Part shown: piece after piece, positions 2,722-21,419 of the stretch
How positions within the stretch are numbered: the stretch's first letter is position 1
How the letters are laid out: each line of letters opens with the position of its first letter
From: Xylographa opegraphella
Lineage: Eukaryota
Length of the DNA stretch: 64,000 nt
Direction of reading: 5' to 3'
Assembly (NCBI GenBank): GCA_022813865.1
Contig: JALDZX010000006.1
Location: 1 to 64,000 of the forward strand
Notes under the pieces: generated by a model
Told to the model about the DNA's origin: nothing
Database searches by the model: none
The model's input: only the letters and a program-made list of their open reading frames with translations
Position numbers and translations under genes: made by a program

Positions 2722-3133
2722 TACAATAGTATAACAGGGAGGTGGTTTAGCCAGACGATATGCTCTAAACAGCGAGAAGATCAGAAAATGGTTGGGTTGC
2801 TTGCTGTAAGTAAAATTGTCTGCAGGATCGCGTTTGATTGCTTCAAGGCCACAGTTGATGCCTATAAGTCTATCCCTTCTCGTGGTCGTTTAGCAACTGC
2901 CCCAAAAGTTTGCTTATTTTGTTTAATATTGACCCAAAAGACCACGATAAGGGATATCCGAGGTCCTAGCGTAGCCGTACGGTAGCCTATCACGCCAGGA
3001 CAAAGCCAGCGCGAGGCCGCTCCTACTGTAGGTCTTGTTTAAAGAATACTATATTTTAGCAGTCAAGCCGACCGGCACATCCGCCTAATTGTCAATGCTG
3101 CTTCCTACGGCCACTAACTGATCCGTCGCCTTA

Positions 3134-5183
3134 ATGGCTGATCCCTCCAGGCCAGGGAATCAATACCAGCACATCCGGATCGATCAAGGCGGGAAAGCTC
3201 AACTGGGCGATACGTACATTCTCCGTGAGCTTTGGCATCCCATCCAAGAAGTAATGTCTGCTGACATACGCACGTCTCCTTGACCAGCGGCTCCAGCCCC
3301 TTTATTACCTCCATCCTATCGACTTGGCTTAAATCTTGAAAATGCGCCGCAGATTGACGAGCAGTTCTTCATCGGACGAAAGGACGAGCTTGCTCATTTA
3401 TACGAATAGTTGTCTCCGTCAACGGAACGATAGAATATGATGGCCATCTCGGGACTCGGAGGGATAGGTAAAACACAGCTTAGTTTGCACTTTGCGCGAC
3501 AACACCATCAACGTTATTCGACGGTGATCTGGCTGAATGCCAGCAGCGAGGTCATACTAAAGGCGGTATGTCTTTCGCGCAGTGCATCCAACGCCACAAC
3601 AAGCAACGCGATGCTAGACAGAGCGAGGTAATAGTGCAATTGAAGGAAGAGCAGGCTGTTCAACTGGTTCGACAGTAGCTGTTACAAGCGGAGAATAAGA
3701 CGTGGTTGTTAATGTTCGATAATTACGATGATCCTCGGCTTCCTGGCATTCGTAGTAGTACTGAATACGACATTCGCACTTTTTTCCCCTACTCCACCCA
3801 AGGATCGATCCTGATTACGACCCGATCTTCTCGCATTACCTTTGCGAAGTCGGTGCGCCTTAACAAGTTCGATGACCTTAATCTGAGTCTGGCAGTTTTA
3901 ATAAGGCGATCGGGTCGACAGGCACACGAAGGTAAGTATATATGATTACTAGGGATCAATACCGACCTTGTATCTAACGACCTTTGTTGTTTAACCCAGA
4001 TGTAAATGCGAAGAAACTGGCGGAACGGTTTAACGGACTTCCATTAGCGTTGGCCACAGCGGGCGACTATATCAGTCAGACGACGGATTCGTTCGGTGAA
4101 TACCTTCAAATGTACGAGCAGAGCTGGGCAGACCTAGCCGAGAACAGTAATAACTTGATGGAGTACGGCGATCGAACGCTGTATTCAACATGGAATCTAT
4201 TGCTGAAGCAGGTCGCCGCTTAAGATCCTGAAGCGGCAAAGCTGATTCGGCTGTTGGGGTATCTGGGGAACACGGATCTGTGGTATAAGCTGTTTTAGAA
4301 GGGTGCAGAATCCGCGTCGGAGTGGTTCTGCAATATTACGAAAAGCAAAGCGCGATTTAATAAAGCAATGGCGACACTACACGGTTATTCGCTGATTAAA
4401 ACGATGCCGGGTTACTACAGTCTTTACGCGTGCGTGCATAACTGGGTTTTGGAGTATCTGATTGGCAAGATCGATATAACGCTGTTTGGCTTAGCGATGT
4501 ATTGTATTGCGCAGAATGTTGCTTGGGAATCTACGCCCGAATACTGGGTGGTTAACAGCCGTTTGAACCATCACGCTCTTCGAATAGAGCATTGCCATCA
4601 AAGAGACGTTGTCGATTGGAACGTTGTCGATATGGACGATATTTTTAATATATGTAATTTGAATTACATGATCGGGCGACTGAAAGAAGCGGAGGAAATG
4701 TACATGCGGGCGCTGAAAGGATATGAAAAGGCATGGGGTACGGAACACACATGGACGCTGGACACAGTCAACAACCTGGGGATTCTTTACGCGGATCAAG
4801 GCAAGATGGCCGAGGCGGAGAAGATGTACATGCGGGCGCTGAAAGGAAAGGAAAAGGCATGGGGTGCGGAACACACATCGACGCTGGACACGGTCAACAA
4901 CCTGGGGAATCTCTACAAAAATCAAGGCAAGATGGCTGAGGCGGAGAAGATGTACATGCGGGCGCTGAAAGGAAAGGAAAAGGCATTGGGTGCGGAACAC
5001 ACATCGACGCTGGACACGGTCAACAACCTGGGTGTTTTTTACGCGGATCAAGGCAAGATGATCGAGGCGGAGGAGATATATATACGGGCACTGAAAGGGT
5101 TTAAAAAGATATATGAAGCTGATCATCCACGGGTATTACTTGTAGAATCTAATCTGAGCTCGCTAACGAGTGCAAGAGATTAA
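3134..5183 (+). pseudogene. Fungal NLR (N-terminal amyloid motif - NB-ARC - TPR), with stops and a frameshift
   Basis: Exon 1 (3134-3224) MADPSRPGNQYQHIRIDQGGKAQLGDTYIL; intron 3225-3287 (GTGAGC..GCTGAC..CAG). Then FIGRKDEL, Walker A GLGGIGKT, Walker B WLLMFDNYD, GSILITTR, GLPLAL and 42-aa TPRs. Stops at 3407, 3431, 3676 and 4221; frameshift near 3570-3600. Confidence 0.9.
4689..5110 (+). repeat. 126-bp tandem TPR-encoding repeat, about 3.3 copies
   Basis: Unit starts (GCGGAG..ATGTACATGCGGGCG or a variant) at 4689, 4815, 4941 and 5067 give an exact 126-bp period with near-identical DNA. Confidence 0.95.
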
Positions 5184-14898: not shown

Positions 14899-17800
14899 AT
14901 GGCGCAGTCTCCAAGCTCTGATCGCCGCGCTCAATTGATTCGAGAGATGTCAAGAGACCTGAACAGGACACGCCCATCATCGAGATCATCTAGAGGATCA
15001 AATGTTAACGCCGAATCAACAACATCTGACTTTGACCCCGAAAACGAAGCATTGATGTCAACGCGACAACTAGAAAGTACTACACAACGACTCCCCGAAC
15101 TACGGGCTAGTGCACAGAAATATGGCCGCTACTCTCAACCTGAACCAGATTTTGCGATAAATACATCTGCAATTGGGAGAGCATTCCCCGATTTCTCGCA
15201 AGGCGGCAGCTCCTCTGAAGACGAAAGTATGTCTATAGAAATCGGGAGAGGACTACCAAAGAGTAATAATGAGAATGATGCGAAAGCGGGACGGTCAAGA
15301 GATTTCTCTTCAAATATCGGAGGGAACAGCATGGAATTTTCCCCTGCCATGGTCGGTAACTATCAGGTCATGAGCACACCACCCAAACGACCATTCCAAG
15401 CTACAAAGAGATCTACGAACACACCCAACGACTCTCTACGTCGAAATGCTCAAGTCCGCCGTGCTTCCACAATTCAACAAAAGACAACAGAACCATCTCC
15501 TCCTGCCGCAAAGACCACAGATTACGTATCTGGATCGAGCAGACAGGGTAACGCAGACAATCGTCGTACTCTCAGCTCGATGCATGCACGTGTTGCAGAT
15601 GAGGATGCTGCCTCTGATGTAAGCGAGGATCGCCCTCAGACATTGAATTTAACTGCGAGGAACACAAGATTCGGTAACGGTCGCAACGGAACTATAACTT
15701 CAAATAATCACTTGCCATCTAAGTTTTCCTCGACCAAAAGGTTTGTTGATGCAATTGTTCAAGGACAAAGTGTAGATCAGAACATCATGAAAGGTCAACA
15801 CAACAATGCCACAACATCGTCCGGGAATCCAGGGACCCAGCAATCTTTCATACTTCCGGACATGCCTAACATGTCGGAACTGGTCTCTGGCGTTTTCCAA
15901 GATGGTACGCCTGTTTTTTCTAGACATGGCAAGCCCCGAGCCTCCCGTTTTGCATCTGGAGCCCATTCACAGCGAGGCAAAGAATATGTTGAAGTAGCCG
16001 GTATAACTGTTCCAGACGAAGAACAAGCCATATTCGTTTCTTTGAAACTTCTGCAGGATAAAGTGGCTGATTTAGAAAATGCAAAGGCTGAAGCCCAAGC
16101 TACTGTGCATGAACTGCAAGAGAAGAATCTCGTTCTCGAGCGCGAAAAACAGGAATTCAAGCGGTTTAGGAGAAGTGATAGTGCACTCGGTACGACGGAT
16201 GGAAGTGATGGAGCTGACGAGTCAGGTCGAGGTCCACGAAAATGGATCATCGAAAAAACTCGTGAGCATACCAGATTTACATAACAAGAGTATAGACTGA
16301 CTGCAACACAGGACTCGAGTCCAGTATTCGAACATTACAAGAACAAGCAAGCACTGCCATGCACAAGAACTCTGTGCTGGAGATTACTATCAGGAATCTG
16401 ACACAAGAACGTGACACAGTAGTTTCGCAGCTAGGTGTAGCCTATCTCACTACTGAGCAACTGAAGGTAGAGAACGAGAGGCTTGTTGAGGCGAATACGC
16501 ATCTCAGTGATGAGATAGCTCGATTGGGGAGTCATGAGGAGACTCAATCCAAAACTCGTGCGAATAGATACCAGGGGAAAAATGGACGACGAAGTCAAGC
16601 TGATCAAGAAGCCTATGATATGAGCCAGATGTCCACAGAACCTCATGGATTGGACCTGATGCTGGCCCAGGATAACATTATCAGAAAGCCGTCGCGCAGG
16701 GAGAGTGTTCTGGGAAATCAAGCAGAACAGGCCACAATAGCCGCTGGGAATAAGAAGTCTCTTGAGCCAAATGCTCGGAGTGGATCGAATAACAAGTCCA
16801 AAGGAATTTCACAAGCATCCAATAGAGTTGAACCTTTGTATTTCGATGAAGAGCCCAGCACACGTAAGGTCAAGAAAACAAGAATGGTTGTCGAGGAGTA
16901 CTCTGAGAGCGAAGCCACCGATGATTCAGTCAATGAACCCATCATCAAACCACAGACTCATGGTCTTGGAGTTCCAGAAGCTGAAGGTGCTACAACGGGA
17001 GATATAACCTTCTTAAGTTTTCTAGAAGTAAGTTGTTAGTTTCGGTGTTTATTTTCATCCACTAATGTAAGTAGAATGGAGAAATCGCCAAACTGCGAAA
17101 GACACTGGAGCAAGAGCGTATTGCTCGAAAACAGCGACTTGGACAGAGCAACAATACTTTGCAGCCAAAACCTGCTAATACGAAACCGTCCGACTCAGCG
17201 CCTCTGCCGAGAAAATCGTCCATGAAGGACTTGTCTGCGCGGTCCGGCAATCGAGTAGATGAAACAATCCATACCCAGCACAGCTTTGACCATGTAACTA
17301 CTGTAGATGCTGAATCCCCGAATATAGAGCTGACTTTCTCGAAGACTACGCAAGCCAAACCACCAAAAAGCCACAATCGCCTCTACTCCGAGCATTCTCT
17401 CCTGGAGCAACGTAACCAGCGTGACGGGATTGGTATGGACGATATGACTTCCGCCTTCATCGTACCTGATATAACCATGAGAAACCCCATTATGACTGGC
17501 GGAGGGTTCCAAAACATGCCAGCATCTGCTCAACAGACTTCAAACAATCCTCCCGAACACGATGGGCAGAATTGCACAGTCTGTAAGCACGTAATCGAAA
17601 AAGGGTCTTCACACAATCATGGCGAGACAGTGAAGGGAACTGTCAAGATCCCGAAACCTATACCAGTGTCTGACCGTATGCCCGAAGCTGGCCCATACGA
17701 AGAAGAGCCTACTATACGTCCTTCACAGCCACCACCTGTAGCACTCGCAGCTGTTATCAAAGGTCTCGAGGACGAGCTTACACATTTGAAAATACAGCTT

Positions 17801-18199
17801 TCGCAATACCAGTCTCTATATAACCAGCATGATCCAGCCTTGAGTAAGCGCAAACGGAAGTCTGTCCTCGCAAAAATTGAGAAAATGACGCAAACTGTGG
17901 ATATCAAATCCGATCAGATCTACGCTCTTTATGACGTGCTAGAAGGACAAAAAGCCGATGGTCACGAGATCAGTGAAGAGGAAGTCGAAATTACCTTGCA
18001 GTCCGTGGGCATCGACCTGGGAGGATTGGGTCTTCGAGGCGGAGACTTGTCGGAAAACAGCAACCAAAAAGAAGAGCATGTTTGGGATATTGATAGTAGC
18101 GACGAGAGCGAAGGAGATATGCCTTGGGAAGGCATCGAGACAACAGTCGACCTAACCAAAAGGAGTGGCGAGTCGAGAAGGCGAAGCTGGGGTGCTTGA
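14899..18199 (+). CDS. ppc89: Ppc89/Cep57-like spindle-pole-body coiled-coil protein with C-terminal microtubule-binding domain, 3 exons
   Basis: Low-complexity N-terminus, central coiled coil (IFVSLKLLQDKVADLE) and C-terminal PTIRPSQPP..ALAAVIKGLEDEL...KSDQIYALYDVLE, which I recognise as Cep57_MT_bd-like. Introns near 16262-16310 and 17028-17074. Confidence 0.75.
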
Positions 18200-18386
18200 G
18201 CGAGGTGTATAAGCTCATAAAAGTAAGGACGACTGATCGGCCATGCCCAAAGTAGAAGCATGGCGTTGGGGCGTCCGATTCTTCGATTTCAACCACATGT
18301 ATTACTTCACGACATCACCGACCACACCGAGCGTCTCGATGCAAGACATCCTTCCGTTCGGATCCGCGTTGGGACAGCCACCACCT

Positions 18387-18740
18387 CTGGCCTAGATCAC
18401 AGTGTTGACTGACTTCGGTGCATGTCCACTGTTCTACCAGCGAAGAAGTTTCCGACCGGATTTCCTAATCTCAATTTACCGTCATACCTGAACATCAACC
18501 ATAACCGCTCAACTCTTCTCTCGTCGTCAATAGCCTTTCCTTCCGCTTTCTTCAGATTGGCGTGATTCGTGTTGACTGACTTCTGTGTATGTCCACGATT
18601 AAGCTCAATTCGGAGGCAAATGGTGAGAAGAGCCATCTCGACGATCGAATTGGTGCGCAGTTTCGGAACAGAGATCTAGCTTGTTGGGGACTATCCTCGT
18701 ATTGACTGACTGCGGTGCATGTCTGCGATTTGATTTCCCC
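18387..18740 (+). ncRNA. Three copies of a bulged hairpin RNA motif (putative 3'UTR cis-element)
   Basis: Core GTRTTGACTGACTNCNGTGYATGTCYRC at 18402-18429, 18569-18596 and 18699-18726. Each folds with a tetraloop (UUCG, UUCU, UGCG) and its own complementary lower stem. Confidence 0.7.
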
Positions 18741-19202
18741 TCATGCTGGACATCTGATATGTGGTTTCCTGTTGCAAAGCGAGGGTTTGAGTGGGTGGAG
18801 ATGGAGTGCTGGATGAGTCTTGCTACTTGTGCGTTCAATGGGGTTTTTGGTTATGATTTCGGCACGAGACTTTCTTTTCTCTTTGCTCCGTAGGCGTTGG
18901 ATAGGGGGTCCGATGCATTAGGTCAGCGGATGTTGAGAGCGTTTGATTACTGGATGACTTGATGAGTTTAGCTGGTCCACAAATTAGAGGTTCTTGATCA
19001 TTGGCTTGATTCAAAGGTGAGACGGCTCTCGTGCTATATATGCTATATAACTCCTTGCAGGAGAAGCATTGAATGTAAACATGCCATATTGGCGGGTATC
19101 ACATGTAATTCCCAACGCCGTGTCTTCCTCGCCATGCCATACCGAGCTTTGCTTTTTTATACGCCGCGCTATTCAAAATGGTTTTCCAGATGTATAATGC
19201 GT

Positions 19203-20480
19203 CTAGGTATCGTCGTCGCTCATGTCGATGTCACCCTCCGTTGCGGCAGCAACAGCAGCACCAGCAGTAGAAACTGCCTTTTCGTCCCCCAGACCTCGCG
19301 ATGTAGCCTTCTCGTCCGCGATGAAGCAACAGAGCCCGGCATTGCCCTCCAGCATTGCTCGAGCGTAGTATTCCTGGACGTCGTATCCTCCCGCGGTGAT
19401 GACAGGATCGTTCCTCGCATTCTCCAGCCAGGGATGTTCGGAATACGTCTGTAGCGAGTAGTAGAGAGTGTCCATACTCATGCCGCCGAATGGATCGTAT
19501 GGCTTCTGCTCCTCCACAACGACAGGGGCTTTGAGCCCTCTGATCATGAATGACGGGTCCGCCGCACTATTGCCGTTGCCGGTGTCGAAAGGATCTTTGC
19601 TCAGACCCATCTTGTGTTCCAAGCCCTGTTGCTGCAGCCGTGCCTTCTCCACCGCCGACCGTCGTGCTGTGCTTTTTTTTAGCACTACCTTTTGACTTTG
19701 CCGTAGGAAATCTTCCGGGCCCGCCTTCCCGGCTGCGACTAGCTGCGTGAATTCCCGCCGGCCCGCTTCTCGTGCTTGCTTCTGGTCTTCTTCCTCCTTG
19801 CGCGCTGCTTCGCGCGACAACCGCGAAATCTCGCGCTGGGCGGCCTCCCACTCTTCAAGCGAGCTGTGCTCCTGAATTGCGAGCACCGCGTTCTTACCGA
19901 TCGAGGCAGAGTTCTCGGCCGAGTAGGCGGCCAGCTTGGCTTCCGTAGCGGCGACGTCGACACGCTCGATCAGGTTGAAGGTGATGTCTTCTTTAAACTC
20001 AAGATAGTCGTTGTAAGCACGTAGGGAGGTGAACTCGTCTTCACGGCGGTTGAAACTACAGAAGCCTCTTATCAGCACTATGCTTCACGGCACGAGCATA
20101 TATGACAAGGTCAATCCGACATACATCTTCTCTATGCGTGCCCGGATATCACACTCCCGCTCCACCTTCAAGTCCTCAAAGGTCTGCCTCCTGAACCTCG
20201 CCTTCCGGAGAGTCCGCCCACAGCCTGCAATCGGACAAGGCGCCGGGCCTTGGGAGAAGATACGGTCGACGCAAGATTCGCACATGCGGTGGTAGCACTC
20301 CGGATTGATGAGGAAGCGCATCTTCGGGTTGAGGTAGCGGGAAGACTTGCATACTGGGCAGATTTCTGTGGGCCCGTCAGCGAAGGGCTTCGATGGAAGG
20401 AGGGAGAGGTGCAGAGCATTCAGATGGGTATGAAGCTCACCGTCTGCGTCGCCAGACCTGGGGATTTGCGTTTGGGCCAT
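19203..20480 (-). CDS. TFB3: TFIIH/CAK assembly factor MAT1 (RING), 3 exons
   Basis: CPVCKSSRYLNP.MRFLINPECYHRMCESCVDRIF..GPAPCP..GC, FEDLKVERECDIR, FNRREDEF..LRAYNDYLE, AGGY. Confidence 0.95.
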
Positions 20481-21419
20481 GCTATCGCGGCGGCGGGCGA
20501 TCTCATCTGGTGGGCTCGTCGGAGTATTTGACGTTACTACGTAGAGGGACTGAGTCACGGCGGAGAGCGGACTAGTTCCGCCTTGTCGGGAGGAAGAAGG
20601 CACTAGGATTAATGAGGGCTAGCTTCTTGGCCCAACATCACTCGTTCGATTCCGTAAAACGATCTGGTGAAAAACAGTCCAGTGGAAACCGGATTCCATG
20701 GAAGATGGTCCCATAAAAGTCGGTACCCAAAGAAGCAGGTACCCAAAAGTCACGGCAACATGTAGCGTTGAAGCTTGGCCGCAGGATCCCCGTGCAATAG
20801 TCTGCGGTTCCACCACTGTTCCAGTTCCACAATATTATCAAAAGGAACCTCACCTTCGTCTGGAAAGAACCTAATTTCATAAGGGGGGCCATGATTGAAA
20901 GGGCCGGGGACAATCCGGCGAAAAAAGGCGAGATGATCAAGTATGTCGGCTATTGTCGTGATCCGTGTTGAGTCCTTCCTCTACCTGTTCTAAGACCTCG
21001 CCCTCCACGAAATCCATGACAATGCATCATCGATCTCTATCGTCTGAGAAGTATCGGTGGGCTTTTGGAATACGGACGATTTGGGGATCAACCAACTCGT
21101 AAGCTCTTGACTGATTGATAGCTTCTGCCTCTGTTACTCGGACACCATAATTGTACGACTGCTTGGTTAGAAATCCGCACGACCTTGTCGCAATAAGGGG
21201 CGCCGCGAAGAATACATTTTTTCTCATTGATACAAAAGTGAAGCGGGTTCAGGCGGAGCGCTGCCTCGAGTAAAATGGACTAGAATATCCTCCGCAGCTA
21301 TGTTAACTCTGCCATCACCGTACTGGCCCGAAGCTTAAATAAGCCCCATACATTTCTTTACTGTGTTACCTTCAAATTGCCTCAGAACCTCAAAGGTTTG
21401 CCTCAATACCTCGGACGTG

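Follow-up and report, generated by a model that had tools for sequence, protein, structure and literature searches.

A tandem bulged hairpin conserved in the ppc89/MAT1 spacer of lichen fungi, a candidate cis-acting 3′UTR element

The DNA analyzed, referred to as the window, is a 64-kb stretch (64,000 nucleotides) of a Xylographa opegraphella contig (JALDZX010000006.1). At positions 17075 to 20618 the last exon of a Cep57/Ppc89-like gene on the + strand, a gene read as three exons from stop-to-stop frames, converges on a MAT1/TFB3 gene. The translation of 17075-18196(+) matched Pfam Cep57_MT_bd (E 1.4e-29) and that of 19206-20084(-) matched Pfam MAT1 (E 5.9e-28), and the names ppc89-like and TFB3 given in the first-pass annotation were upheld by these matches. 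The closest named relative of the window Ppc89 exon was from Lambiella insularis (62% identity), which makes a lichen-forming ascomycete the probable source. The spacer between the two stop codons contains three hairpins, of which the first core begins 206 nt past the ppc89-like stop and the last core lies 480 nt away from the MAT1 stop. The features are as follows.

17075 to 18199, + strand: last exon and stop of the Cep57/Ppc89-like gene (Pfam Cep57_MT_bd)
18200 to 19202, no strand: intergenic spacer between the convergent stops, 1003 nt
18387 to 18440, + strand: hairpin copy 1; core 18405-18426, loop UUCG; 6-bp stem ACAGUG/CACUGU, outer stems UAGA/UCUA and CUGG/CCAG; covariance model R1, 63.8 bits, E 3e-17
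18556 to 18609, + strand: hairpin copy 2; core 18572-18593, loop UUCU; stem UCGUG/CACGA, outer stem AUUG/CAAU; inner pair UG/YA, with G-U replacing G-C; R1, 54.4 bits, E 2.5e-14
18686 to 18740, + strand: hairpin copy 3; core 18702-18723, loop UGCG; stem UCGUA/UGCGA with a U-G wobble, outer stem GGGGA/UCCCC (GGGGA..AUC/GAU..UCCCC); R1, 60.6 bits, E 3e-16
19203 to 20618, - strand: MAT1/TFB3 gene, convergent; open frames 20618-20085 and 20084-19203

To include the whole array, the 3′UTR of the ppc89-like gene would have to extend to at least 18740, a length of at least 541 nt. A 3′UTR of this size is long by fungal standards.

The first-pass annotation had claimed three copies of a bulged hairpin, and the repeat finder, the sequence and ViennaRNA agreed with it in each detail checked. 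The repeat finder returned a single 34-nt family with three members (18400-18433, 18567-18600 and 18697-18730; identities 82, 100 and 82%), with a copy spacing of 167 and 130 nt and dissimilar spacers. The 22-nt pattern common to the copies, TTGACTGACTNNNGTGNATGTC, occurs three times in the 64-kb window, each time on the + strand, where 0.08 occurrences are expected by chance; three were reached in 0 of 100 shuffles. The loops UUCG, UUCU and UGCG, the lower stems and the change from UG/CA to UG/UA in copy 2 were all present in the sequence as described, and the outer stems CUGG..UAGA/UCUA.CCAG, AUUG/CAAU and GGGGA..AUC/GAU..UCCCC were recovered in ViennaRNA folds, although the UG/UA of copy 2 stays unpaired in its minimum-energy fold. 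Folding energies of copies 1, 2 and 3 were -16.2, -14.5 and -17.8 kcal/mol on the + strand (z-scores -1.30, -2.16 and -2.48) and -16.0, -10.3 and -12.1 kcal/mol on the minus strand, which is weaker for copies 2 and 3. Across the single sequences examined, z-scores ranged from -1.3 to -2.8. Stability of this kind is modest, so the weight of the case lies on comparison across genomes.

Related loci were retrieved by scanning metagenome contigs for the exact 22-nt pattern, giving 35 loci (designated with L numbers). A relaxed regular expression was then applied to all loci and the window (240,589 bases) and returned 55 cores, 27 of them distinct. At least five of six flanking-stem pairs are formed around 21 of the 27 distinct cores. 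The other six, found in L001, L004, L005 (two cores), L017/L034 and L029, have 0-3 of the six pairs; they were treated as chance or decayed matches and set aside.

At least four further fungal lineages have the core on the same strand and in the matching intergenic place. By blastn and Pfam, the orthologous site was located in L002/L011, L003/L016, L013/L015, L027 and L018, in each case on the same strand and adjoining MAT1 (assigned by blastn and/or Pfam). A Cep57_MT_bd gene was confirmed upstream of the hairpins in L002/L011, L003/L016 and L013/L015; the L018 contig is cut off upstream, and the upstream ORF of L027 fell outside the Pfam test. Homologous hairpins near ppc89 in other genomes, which the first-pass annotation had set as a check, are therefore found in the orthologous ppc89/MAT1 spacer. 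In all convergent ppc89/MAT1 pairs the array is closer to the ppc89 stop (65-206 nt) than to the MAT1 stop (about 380-870 nt). The lineages, compared with each other and with the window, have 41-52% identity in the Ppc89 exon and 45-67% in MAT1, and orthologous spacers have almost no 9-mers in common besides the hairpin cores. Invariance of the core is partly by construction, because the relatives were fetched with the exact pattern and loci with a lost or altered core cannot appear in such a retrieval; with this proviso, the identity of a 22-nt non-coding core despite 41-52% Ppc89 identity points to strong purifying selection. Contigs of three DNA runs were aligned to 16300-20700 of the window. 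A contig of run X2, from another organism, matches 18402-18429 (the core) only, and both of its flanks are unlike those of the window.

A covariance model was built from 18 hairpins, as the first-pass annotation had proposed. It detects a second copy, missed by the pattern, in every orthologous locus. These second copies score 43-50 bits except in L018, where the score is 14 bits and the core is lost.

Pairs were counted in an alignment of the same number of hairpins, comprising the three window copies and 15 others. In the proposed structure 87.7% of 342 cells pair, compared with 77.3 ± 1.3 in shuffles, of which 0 of 500 reached the observed value; the percentage paired is raised by the omission of exact duplicates and of the six stemless matches from the 18 rows. 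Changes on both sides were seen in 12 of the 19 pairs. Six core-adjacent pairs supply the bulk of the covariation signal, with six pair types at columns 19-48, four at 18-49, and A-U in 10 hairpins and G-C in 8 at 22-45. In a control with the 3′ partners shifted by 1-3 columns, pairing fell to 25-44%, and RNAalifold, run unguided, yielded the same helices. Covariation beyond shuffles, together with conservation at orthologous sites, supports the earlier claim that this is a selected structured RNA.

The strand was assigned from wobble pairs. Cells of the 6-bp stem comprise 91 Watson-Crick pairs, 13 G-U pairs, 0 A-C pairs and 4 others, and of the 18 aligned hairpins, 11 have G-U and 6 have G-C as the inner G-Y pair. 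Because G-U occurs without A-C, and wobbles become mismatches on the minus strand, the selected structure is the + strand RNA, in the sense of ppc89. The preference for this strand, argued earlier from wobbles, is thus borne out by 13 G-U against 0 A-C cells.

The hairpin is about 55-60 nt long, with about 19 bp in all. Its fixed module is made of three very short helices parted by single-base bulges (5′ strand UU-GAC-UG-AC, 3′ strand GU-G-YA-U-GUC), beneath which the lower stem covaries freely and above which sits a tetraloop cap. With bulges included, the constant part is GACUGAC facing GU-N-YAUGUC. A 5′ bulge of UU is present in 19 of the 21 hairpins that have the stem, and UC and UG are found in one each. 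One hairpin has C at the bulged-G position, where the other 20 have G. At the Y position U is found 14 times, C six times and A once. UNCG loops are present in 17 of the 21, and UUAG and UUCU are each seen once. Tetraloops of the c(UNCG)g type are stable RNA caps. In two copies found by the model, L013b and L002b, the apical helix is longer by 2 bp and capped by UUUG or CUUG, so that the apical stem has either 2 or 4 bp. These insertions keep and extend the AC/GU helix, which supports the pairing register given by the first-pass annotation and indicates that the loop is a structural cap; to judge from these variants, the apical loop would serve only as a cap and not as a recognized part. Below the 6-bp stem, most metagenome copies have a two-base bulge on the 3′ side and a second helix (GCUC/GAGC-like), in place of which the window copies have different outer stems.

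Hairpins also follow two genes unrelated to ppc89. Across three gene contexts (Cep57/Ppc89, a KEN-box protein and a PHD-like protein), the first core, or the intact one in L033, lies 65-405 nt past the upstream stop and on the sense strand. Of the remaining loci, the majority belong to a single group, in which one or two hairpins are located between a frame of 346-404 residues, encoding the KEN-box protein, and an ATP-dependent DNA ligase gene. In these loci the first core is 197-405 nt past the stop and the likely ligase start is about 700 nt beyond the hairpins. Homologs of the KEN-box protein were found in Alectoria, Lepraria, Lecanora, Cladonia, Stereocaulon and Psora, and are named "hypothetical protein" apart from one "Thymidylate kinase." The invariant columns include KENIPP and R-x-P-L-G-x-L, which we take to be a KEN box and a destruction box, respectively. 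The protein has no significant Pfam match, and its profile gave only chance ubiquitin matches when searched against solved structures. The protein Atlas offered a securin cluster for it at 0.79, and a securin-like identity is regarded as a lead only.

When five KEN-box loci were aligned, two hairpin positions about 100 nt apart were apparent, and the rest of the spacer was without conservation. Position A is decayed in L033 and position B in L006, with the partner intact each time. The copies thus turn over with at least one kept, and appear from this pattern to be redundant. Single intact hairpins are found in L006, L033 and L035. In L035 the core begins 210 nt past the stop of a 929-residue PHD-like protein, for which eight unnamed homologs, a Pfam PHD match at E 0.17 and Atlas scores below 0.9 were obtained. 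Loci of the Ppc89 type and of the KEN type are found in the same assembly in five cases (L002/L022, L011/L020, L016/L019, L013/L030 and L015/L010), which suggests that single genomes carry the element on both genes.

Copy number per genome was estimated from the window, the 6-kb loci and the contigs of DNA run X1, which probably derives from the genome of the window (30.6 million letters, 98,362 contigs). With filters off, the covariance model found three copies in the 64-kb window; a further 17-bit match at 20283-20344(+), within MAT1 coding sequence, was attributed to chance. At a search level of 80% likeness, one other core-bearing contig was present in X1. It is 127 nt long and has two cores about 101 nt apart, and its depth of 162.7, compared with 163.4, is that of single-copy DNA, which indicates a second locus with a doublet and not a high-copy repeat. 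By its arrangement this contig is probably the KEN-box locus of the window's own genome. Related loci are limited to three or four gene contexts. A MITE, which the first-pass annotation had named as a finding that would count against its proposal, was rejected: the element is multi-copy, yet with three copies in 64 kb and one further X1 contig its number is low, and neither target-site duplications nor terminal repeats were seen around the window units.

Known RNA families were searched using cmscan with Rfam 15 at E values up to 10, over positions 17800-19600 of the window, 2670-3830 of L008 and 2810-3520 of L013. The hairpins had no match in these segments. This search, too, had been set as a check, and it places the element in no known Rfam family. 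Away from the hairpins, snoRNA models matched with E values of 8.4, 1.4 and 0.88; the match near the window hairpins, to a Tetrahymena C/D model (E 8.4, 18942-19017), lies off them and was discarded. A novel snoRNA could be missed by the Rfam snoRNA models. Box C/D RNAs have a C box (RUGAUGA) and a D box (CUGA) with a terminal stem, and H/ACA RNAs the order hairpin, H box, hairpin, ACA. Inspection of the three window units by eye showed no C box, and what is conserved in them is a closed hairpin that lacks any open, guide-like strand. Kink-turns, which are bound by L7Ae, Snu13 or L30, have a three-base bulge followed by tandem sheared G-A pairs; in the core, the bulges are 1-2 nt and opposed GA/AG dinucleotides are absent. 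MicroRNA-like precursors have a conserved stem arm, a variable loop and a stem of Dicer length, which is the reverse of the pattern seen here, where it is the stem arms that covary freely, below a fixed apical stretch of 22 nt.

The closest systems are hairpins of mRNA 3′ regions. Iron-responsive elements occur in tandem in the transferrin-receptor 3′UTR, where they are read by IRP, and are defined by a CAGUGN loop of six bases and, five pairs beneath it, a bulged C. The present hairpins resemble them in being tandem in one 3′ region and in having a fixed module on a covarying stem; IRE copies are roughly 30 nt long, and the IRE is found on a handful of unrelated mRNAs with one reading protein. 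Unlike the IRE, our hairpins have no CAGUGN loop or C-bulge (the bulges are UU, U and G), have no Rfam match, and carry their fixed part as an internal, triply bulged module above which the hairpin loop is dispensable. Like the histone 3′ stem-loop bound by SLBP, a short conserved 3′ hairpin could mark a few division-related mRNAs, but the histone stem-loop is a single hairpin of 6 bp and 4 nt at the extreme 3′ end, whereas ours is longer, bulged, repeated and 65-405 nt past the stop. The cell-cycle theme in this comparison draws only on Ppc89 and a KEN-box protein of putative function. Sites for Smaug/Vts1 and Roquin and the six METTL16 hairpins of MAT2A are likewise 3′UTR elements, often repeated, that combine a shape with a few fixed bases. 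Recognition of those sites depends on the loop sequence (a CNGG-type loop for Smaug/Vts1, a tri-loop for Roquin and a fixed nonamer for METTL16), whereas in our hairpins the loop varies in sequence and length and the internal bulged helices are fixed; a CNGG(N) loop of the Smaug/Vts1 type was found in 0 of the 21 hairpins.

To our knowledge, few structured cis-regulatory RNAs have been described in filamentous fungi. A full-text literature search for the core hairpin, for lichen-fungus UTR stem-loops and for the Ppc89 mRNA or UTR returned nothing relevant. Screens for structured RNAs in fungi have reported UTR motifs supported by covariation, several of them UNCG-capped, in the sections consulted (PMC5640933; PMC8216456). 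Those sections of Li and Breaker 2017 (PMC5640933) and of Gao, Jones and Rivas 2021 (PMC8216456) mention no tandem hairpin near Cep57/Ppc89. The structure reported by Gao, Jones and Rivas is described there as 85 nt long and essentially single-copy, with 442 sequences in 412 genomes (PMC8216456). Compared by that partial description, our hairpin may overlap it, because MAT1 has a RING finger. It is well supported by the searches and alignments above that the hairpin represents an undescribed conserved RNA structure, presumably of the cis-regulatory mRNA hairpin kind.

The reading that we favor, as somewhat more likely than not, is that these hairpins constitute a new family of cis-acting 3′UTR elements read by one putative RNA-binding protein. 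The hairpins would be transcribed within the 3′UTR of the upstream gene, here the Cep57/Ppc89-like gene, and the fixed bulged module would form the docking surface for a single trans-acting protein, with two or three copies per mRNA allowing multivalent or redundant binding. Placed on a few unrelated mRNAs, the element could subject them to common post-transcriptional control of stability, translation or localization. The first-pass annotation had proposed autoregulation by Ppc89 or a localization signal to the spindle pole body. Both a Ppc89 autoregulatory site and a zip code private to ppc89 are weakened, since unrelated genes share the hairpin, which makes an mRNA-specific signal unlikely and a shared trans-acting reader likelier. 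A narrower version, in which a lineage-restricted regulon of mitotic mRNAs (those of Ppc89 and of a KEN-box/D-box, securin-like APC substrate) is governed by one reader of a new RNA fold, is speculative and on present indications rather unlikely. In the fold so recognized, a tandem UGAC strand would pair with GUGYAUGUC, and single-base bulges would alternate along it. Three gene contexts make regulon a thin label.

Conservation, covariation and strand would fit equally well if the units acted in trans as small non-coding RNAs in their own right, or as a short polycistronic precursor, arising from a dedicated transcript or excised from read-through RNA. The 1003-nt convergent spacer is roomy for a compact genome, and two or three units 100-170 nt apart resemble small-RNA clusters. 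Such RNAs would not be expected to hold a consistent sense-strand position 65-405 nt past the stop in three unrelated contexts, and no conserved promoter- or terminator-like sequence was seen around the hairpins. With no box C/D or H/ACA layout by eye, no Rfam match on the hairpins, and conservation of an apical module where microRNA-like precursors conserve a stem arm, we consider this explanation distinctly unlikely. It is improbable that the hairpins are signals for cleavage or processing by an RNase III-type or other structure-specific nuclease, leading to mRNA decay or 3′-end formation, even though a long interrupted stem of about 19 bp with a stable tetraloop, placed in tandem in 3′ regions, would suit such an enzyme. 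Yeast Rnt1 measures from the loop, cutting at a fixed distance from an AGNN tetraloop; here the AGNN loop is absent, and the distance from loop to module varies with an apical stem of 2-4 bp (2 or 4 bp in the copies compared above). Recognition by a nuclease would also be a special case of protein recognition in which the outcome is a cut.

Two hexamers of the core look like splicing signals: ACUGAC is similar to the branch-point consensus of fungi, and GUAUGU to a 5′ splice site. Both are present in most copies, and tandem hairpins 100-170 nt apart would enclose an intron-sized segment, so that masked splice signals or a snRNP decoy might control a 3′UTR intron between the hairpins and, through it, nonsense-mediated decay. 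In the would-be GU, the U is replaced by C in 6 of the 21 hairpins and by A in one, and the G by C in the intact L003b hairpin and in the stemless L005b core. The would-be GU thus varies as expected of a G-Y base pair and not of a splice site. The first AG past the branch-like site is mostly GAG, the poorest splice acceptor; loci with a single intact hairpin (L006, L033 and L035) persist; and covariation and UNCG caps show that the folded form is selected. Regulated splicing is accordingly rated as highly improbable. A feature of the DNA itself with no role for RNA, whether a palindromic transcription-factor site, a recombination or cruciform structure or a MITE-like repeat, or else a minus-strand coding repeat, is barely credible. 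The element is an inverted repeat, and one minus-strand frame encodes a similar nonapeptide in all three copies, the loop variants all being Arg codons. Each of these peptides ends at a stop only a few codons on, and neither copy spacing (167 or 130 nt) is divisible by 3; on the plus strand, stops in the core interrupt two of the three frames. Both coding possibilities were rejected. Complementarity kept through sequence change, with 13 G-U and 0 A-C cells, is strand-specific and argues against a DNA-level role, as do the three copies per 64 kb with one other X1 contig and the absence of target-site duplications and terminal repeats.

If the hairpin is a protein-binding site, as in the reading favored here, it would define a small regulon and provide a handle for finding the reader, and would connect, at the level of mRNA, spindle-pole-body control with a putative substrate of the APC/C. 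Should the regulon of mitotic mRNAs prove real, it would be a fungal counterpart of the histone stem-loop with SLBP or of the IRE with IRP, and might couple cell division to the growth of lichen fungi, which is slow and bound to the symbiosis. Free small RNAs would instead represent a new small-RNA class. Under either reading, the covariance model can be used immediately for genome-wide searches.

One locus differs in arrangement. In L005 the two cores without flanking stems are located upstream of an MCM gene, and the frame upstream of them is unconvincing as a gene; this arrangement is at odds with a 3′UTR position and is a poor fit to the other explanations too.

Hairpin copies are subject to turnover at the KEN-box locus, where they lie 3′ of the KEN-box protein gene and 5′ of the ATP-dependent DNA ligase gene. 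In the five-locus alignment A4 (columns 390-545), a different one of the two hairpin positions was decayed, and its partner intact, in L033 (~2985-3040) and in L006 (~3085-3150), a pattern of copy turnover in which at least one copy is kept. Within the ppc89/MAT1 spacer of another metagenome locus, L018, the second hairpin (347-411, + strand) retained covarying lower stems, carried unrelated sequence in place of the apical core, and scored only 14.3 bits with the covariance model built from 18 hairpins.

The KEN-box family frames and the cores found outside complete hairpins were located as follows:

L006, L007, L008, L010 and L033, ends at ~2576-2801: KEN-box family frames, compared in alignment A3
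L005, 565-586 and 757-777, + strand: two cores without flanking stems, 192 nt apart

The DNA ligase gene was downstream of the KEN-box family gene. The columns invariant in A3 include KENIPP, resembling a KEN-box degron, and R-x-P-L-G-x-L, resembling a destruction-box degron; on the basis of these motifs the protein may be a securin-like APC/C substrate. The hosts of this family are lichen-forming fungi, and no source gives it a functional name.

Downstream of the two stemless cores of L005 was an MCM gene (MCM_N, E 3.2e-14); upstream of them was a frame that was not convincing as a gene. Such a setting is at odds with a 3′UTR reading. A contig from X2, a DNA sequencing run of another organism in the same study, contained a 28-nt core matching window 18402-18429 with unlike flanks.

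On the minus strand of window 18400-18730, one frame of each of the three copies would read as a similar nonapeptide, in which all three loop variants were Arg codons; because a stop codon closes each of these frames only a few codons on, the resemblance was taken as coincidence. A weak covariance-model match at window 20283-20344 (+ strand, 17.1 bits, E 0.0096), antisense within the MAT1 coding region, is probably due to chance. A TATATA-rich stretch at window 19030-19055 lies ~300 nt beyond the last hairpin, with the MAT1 stop ~150 nt away; either of the convergent genes could use it as a poly(A) efficiency element.
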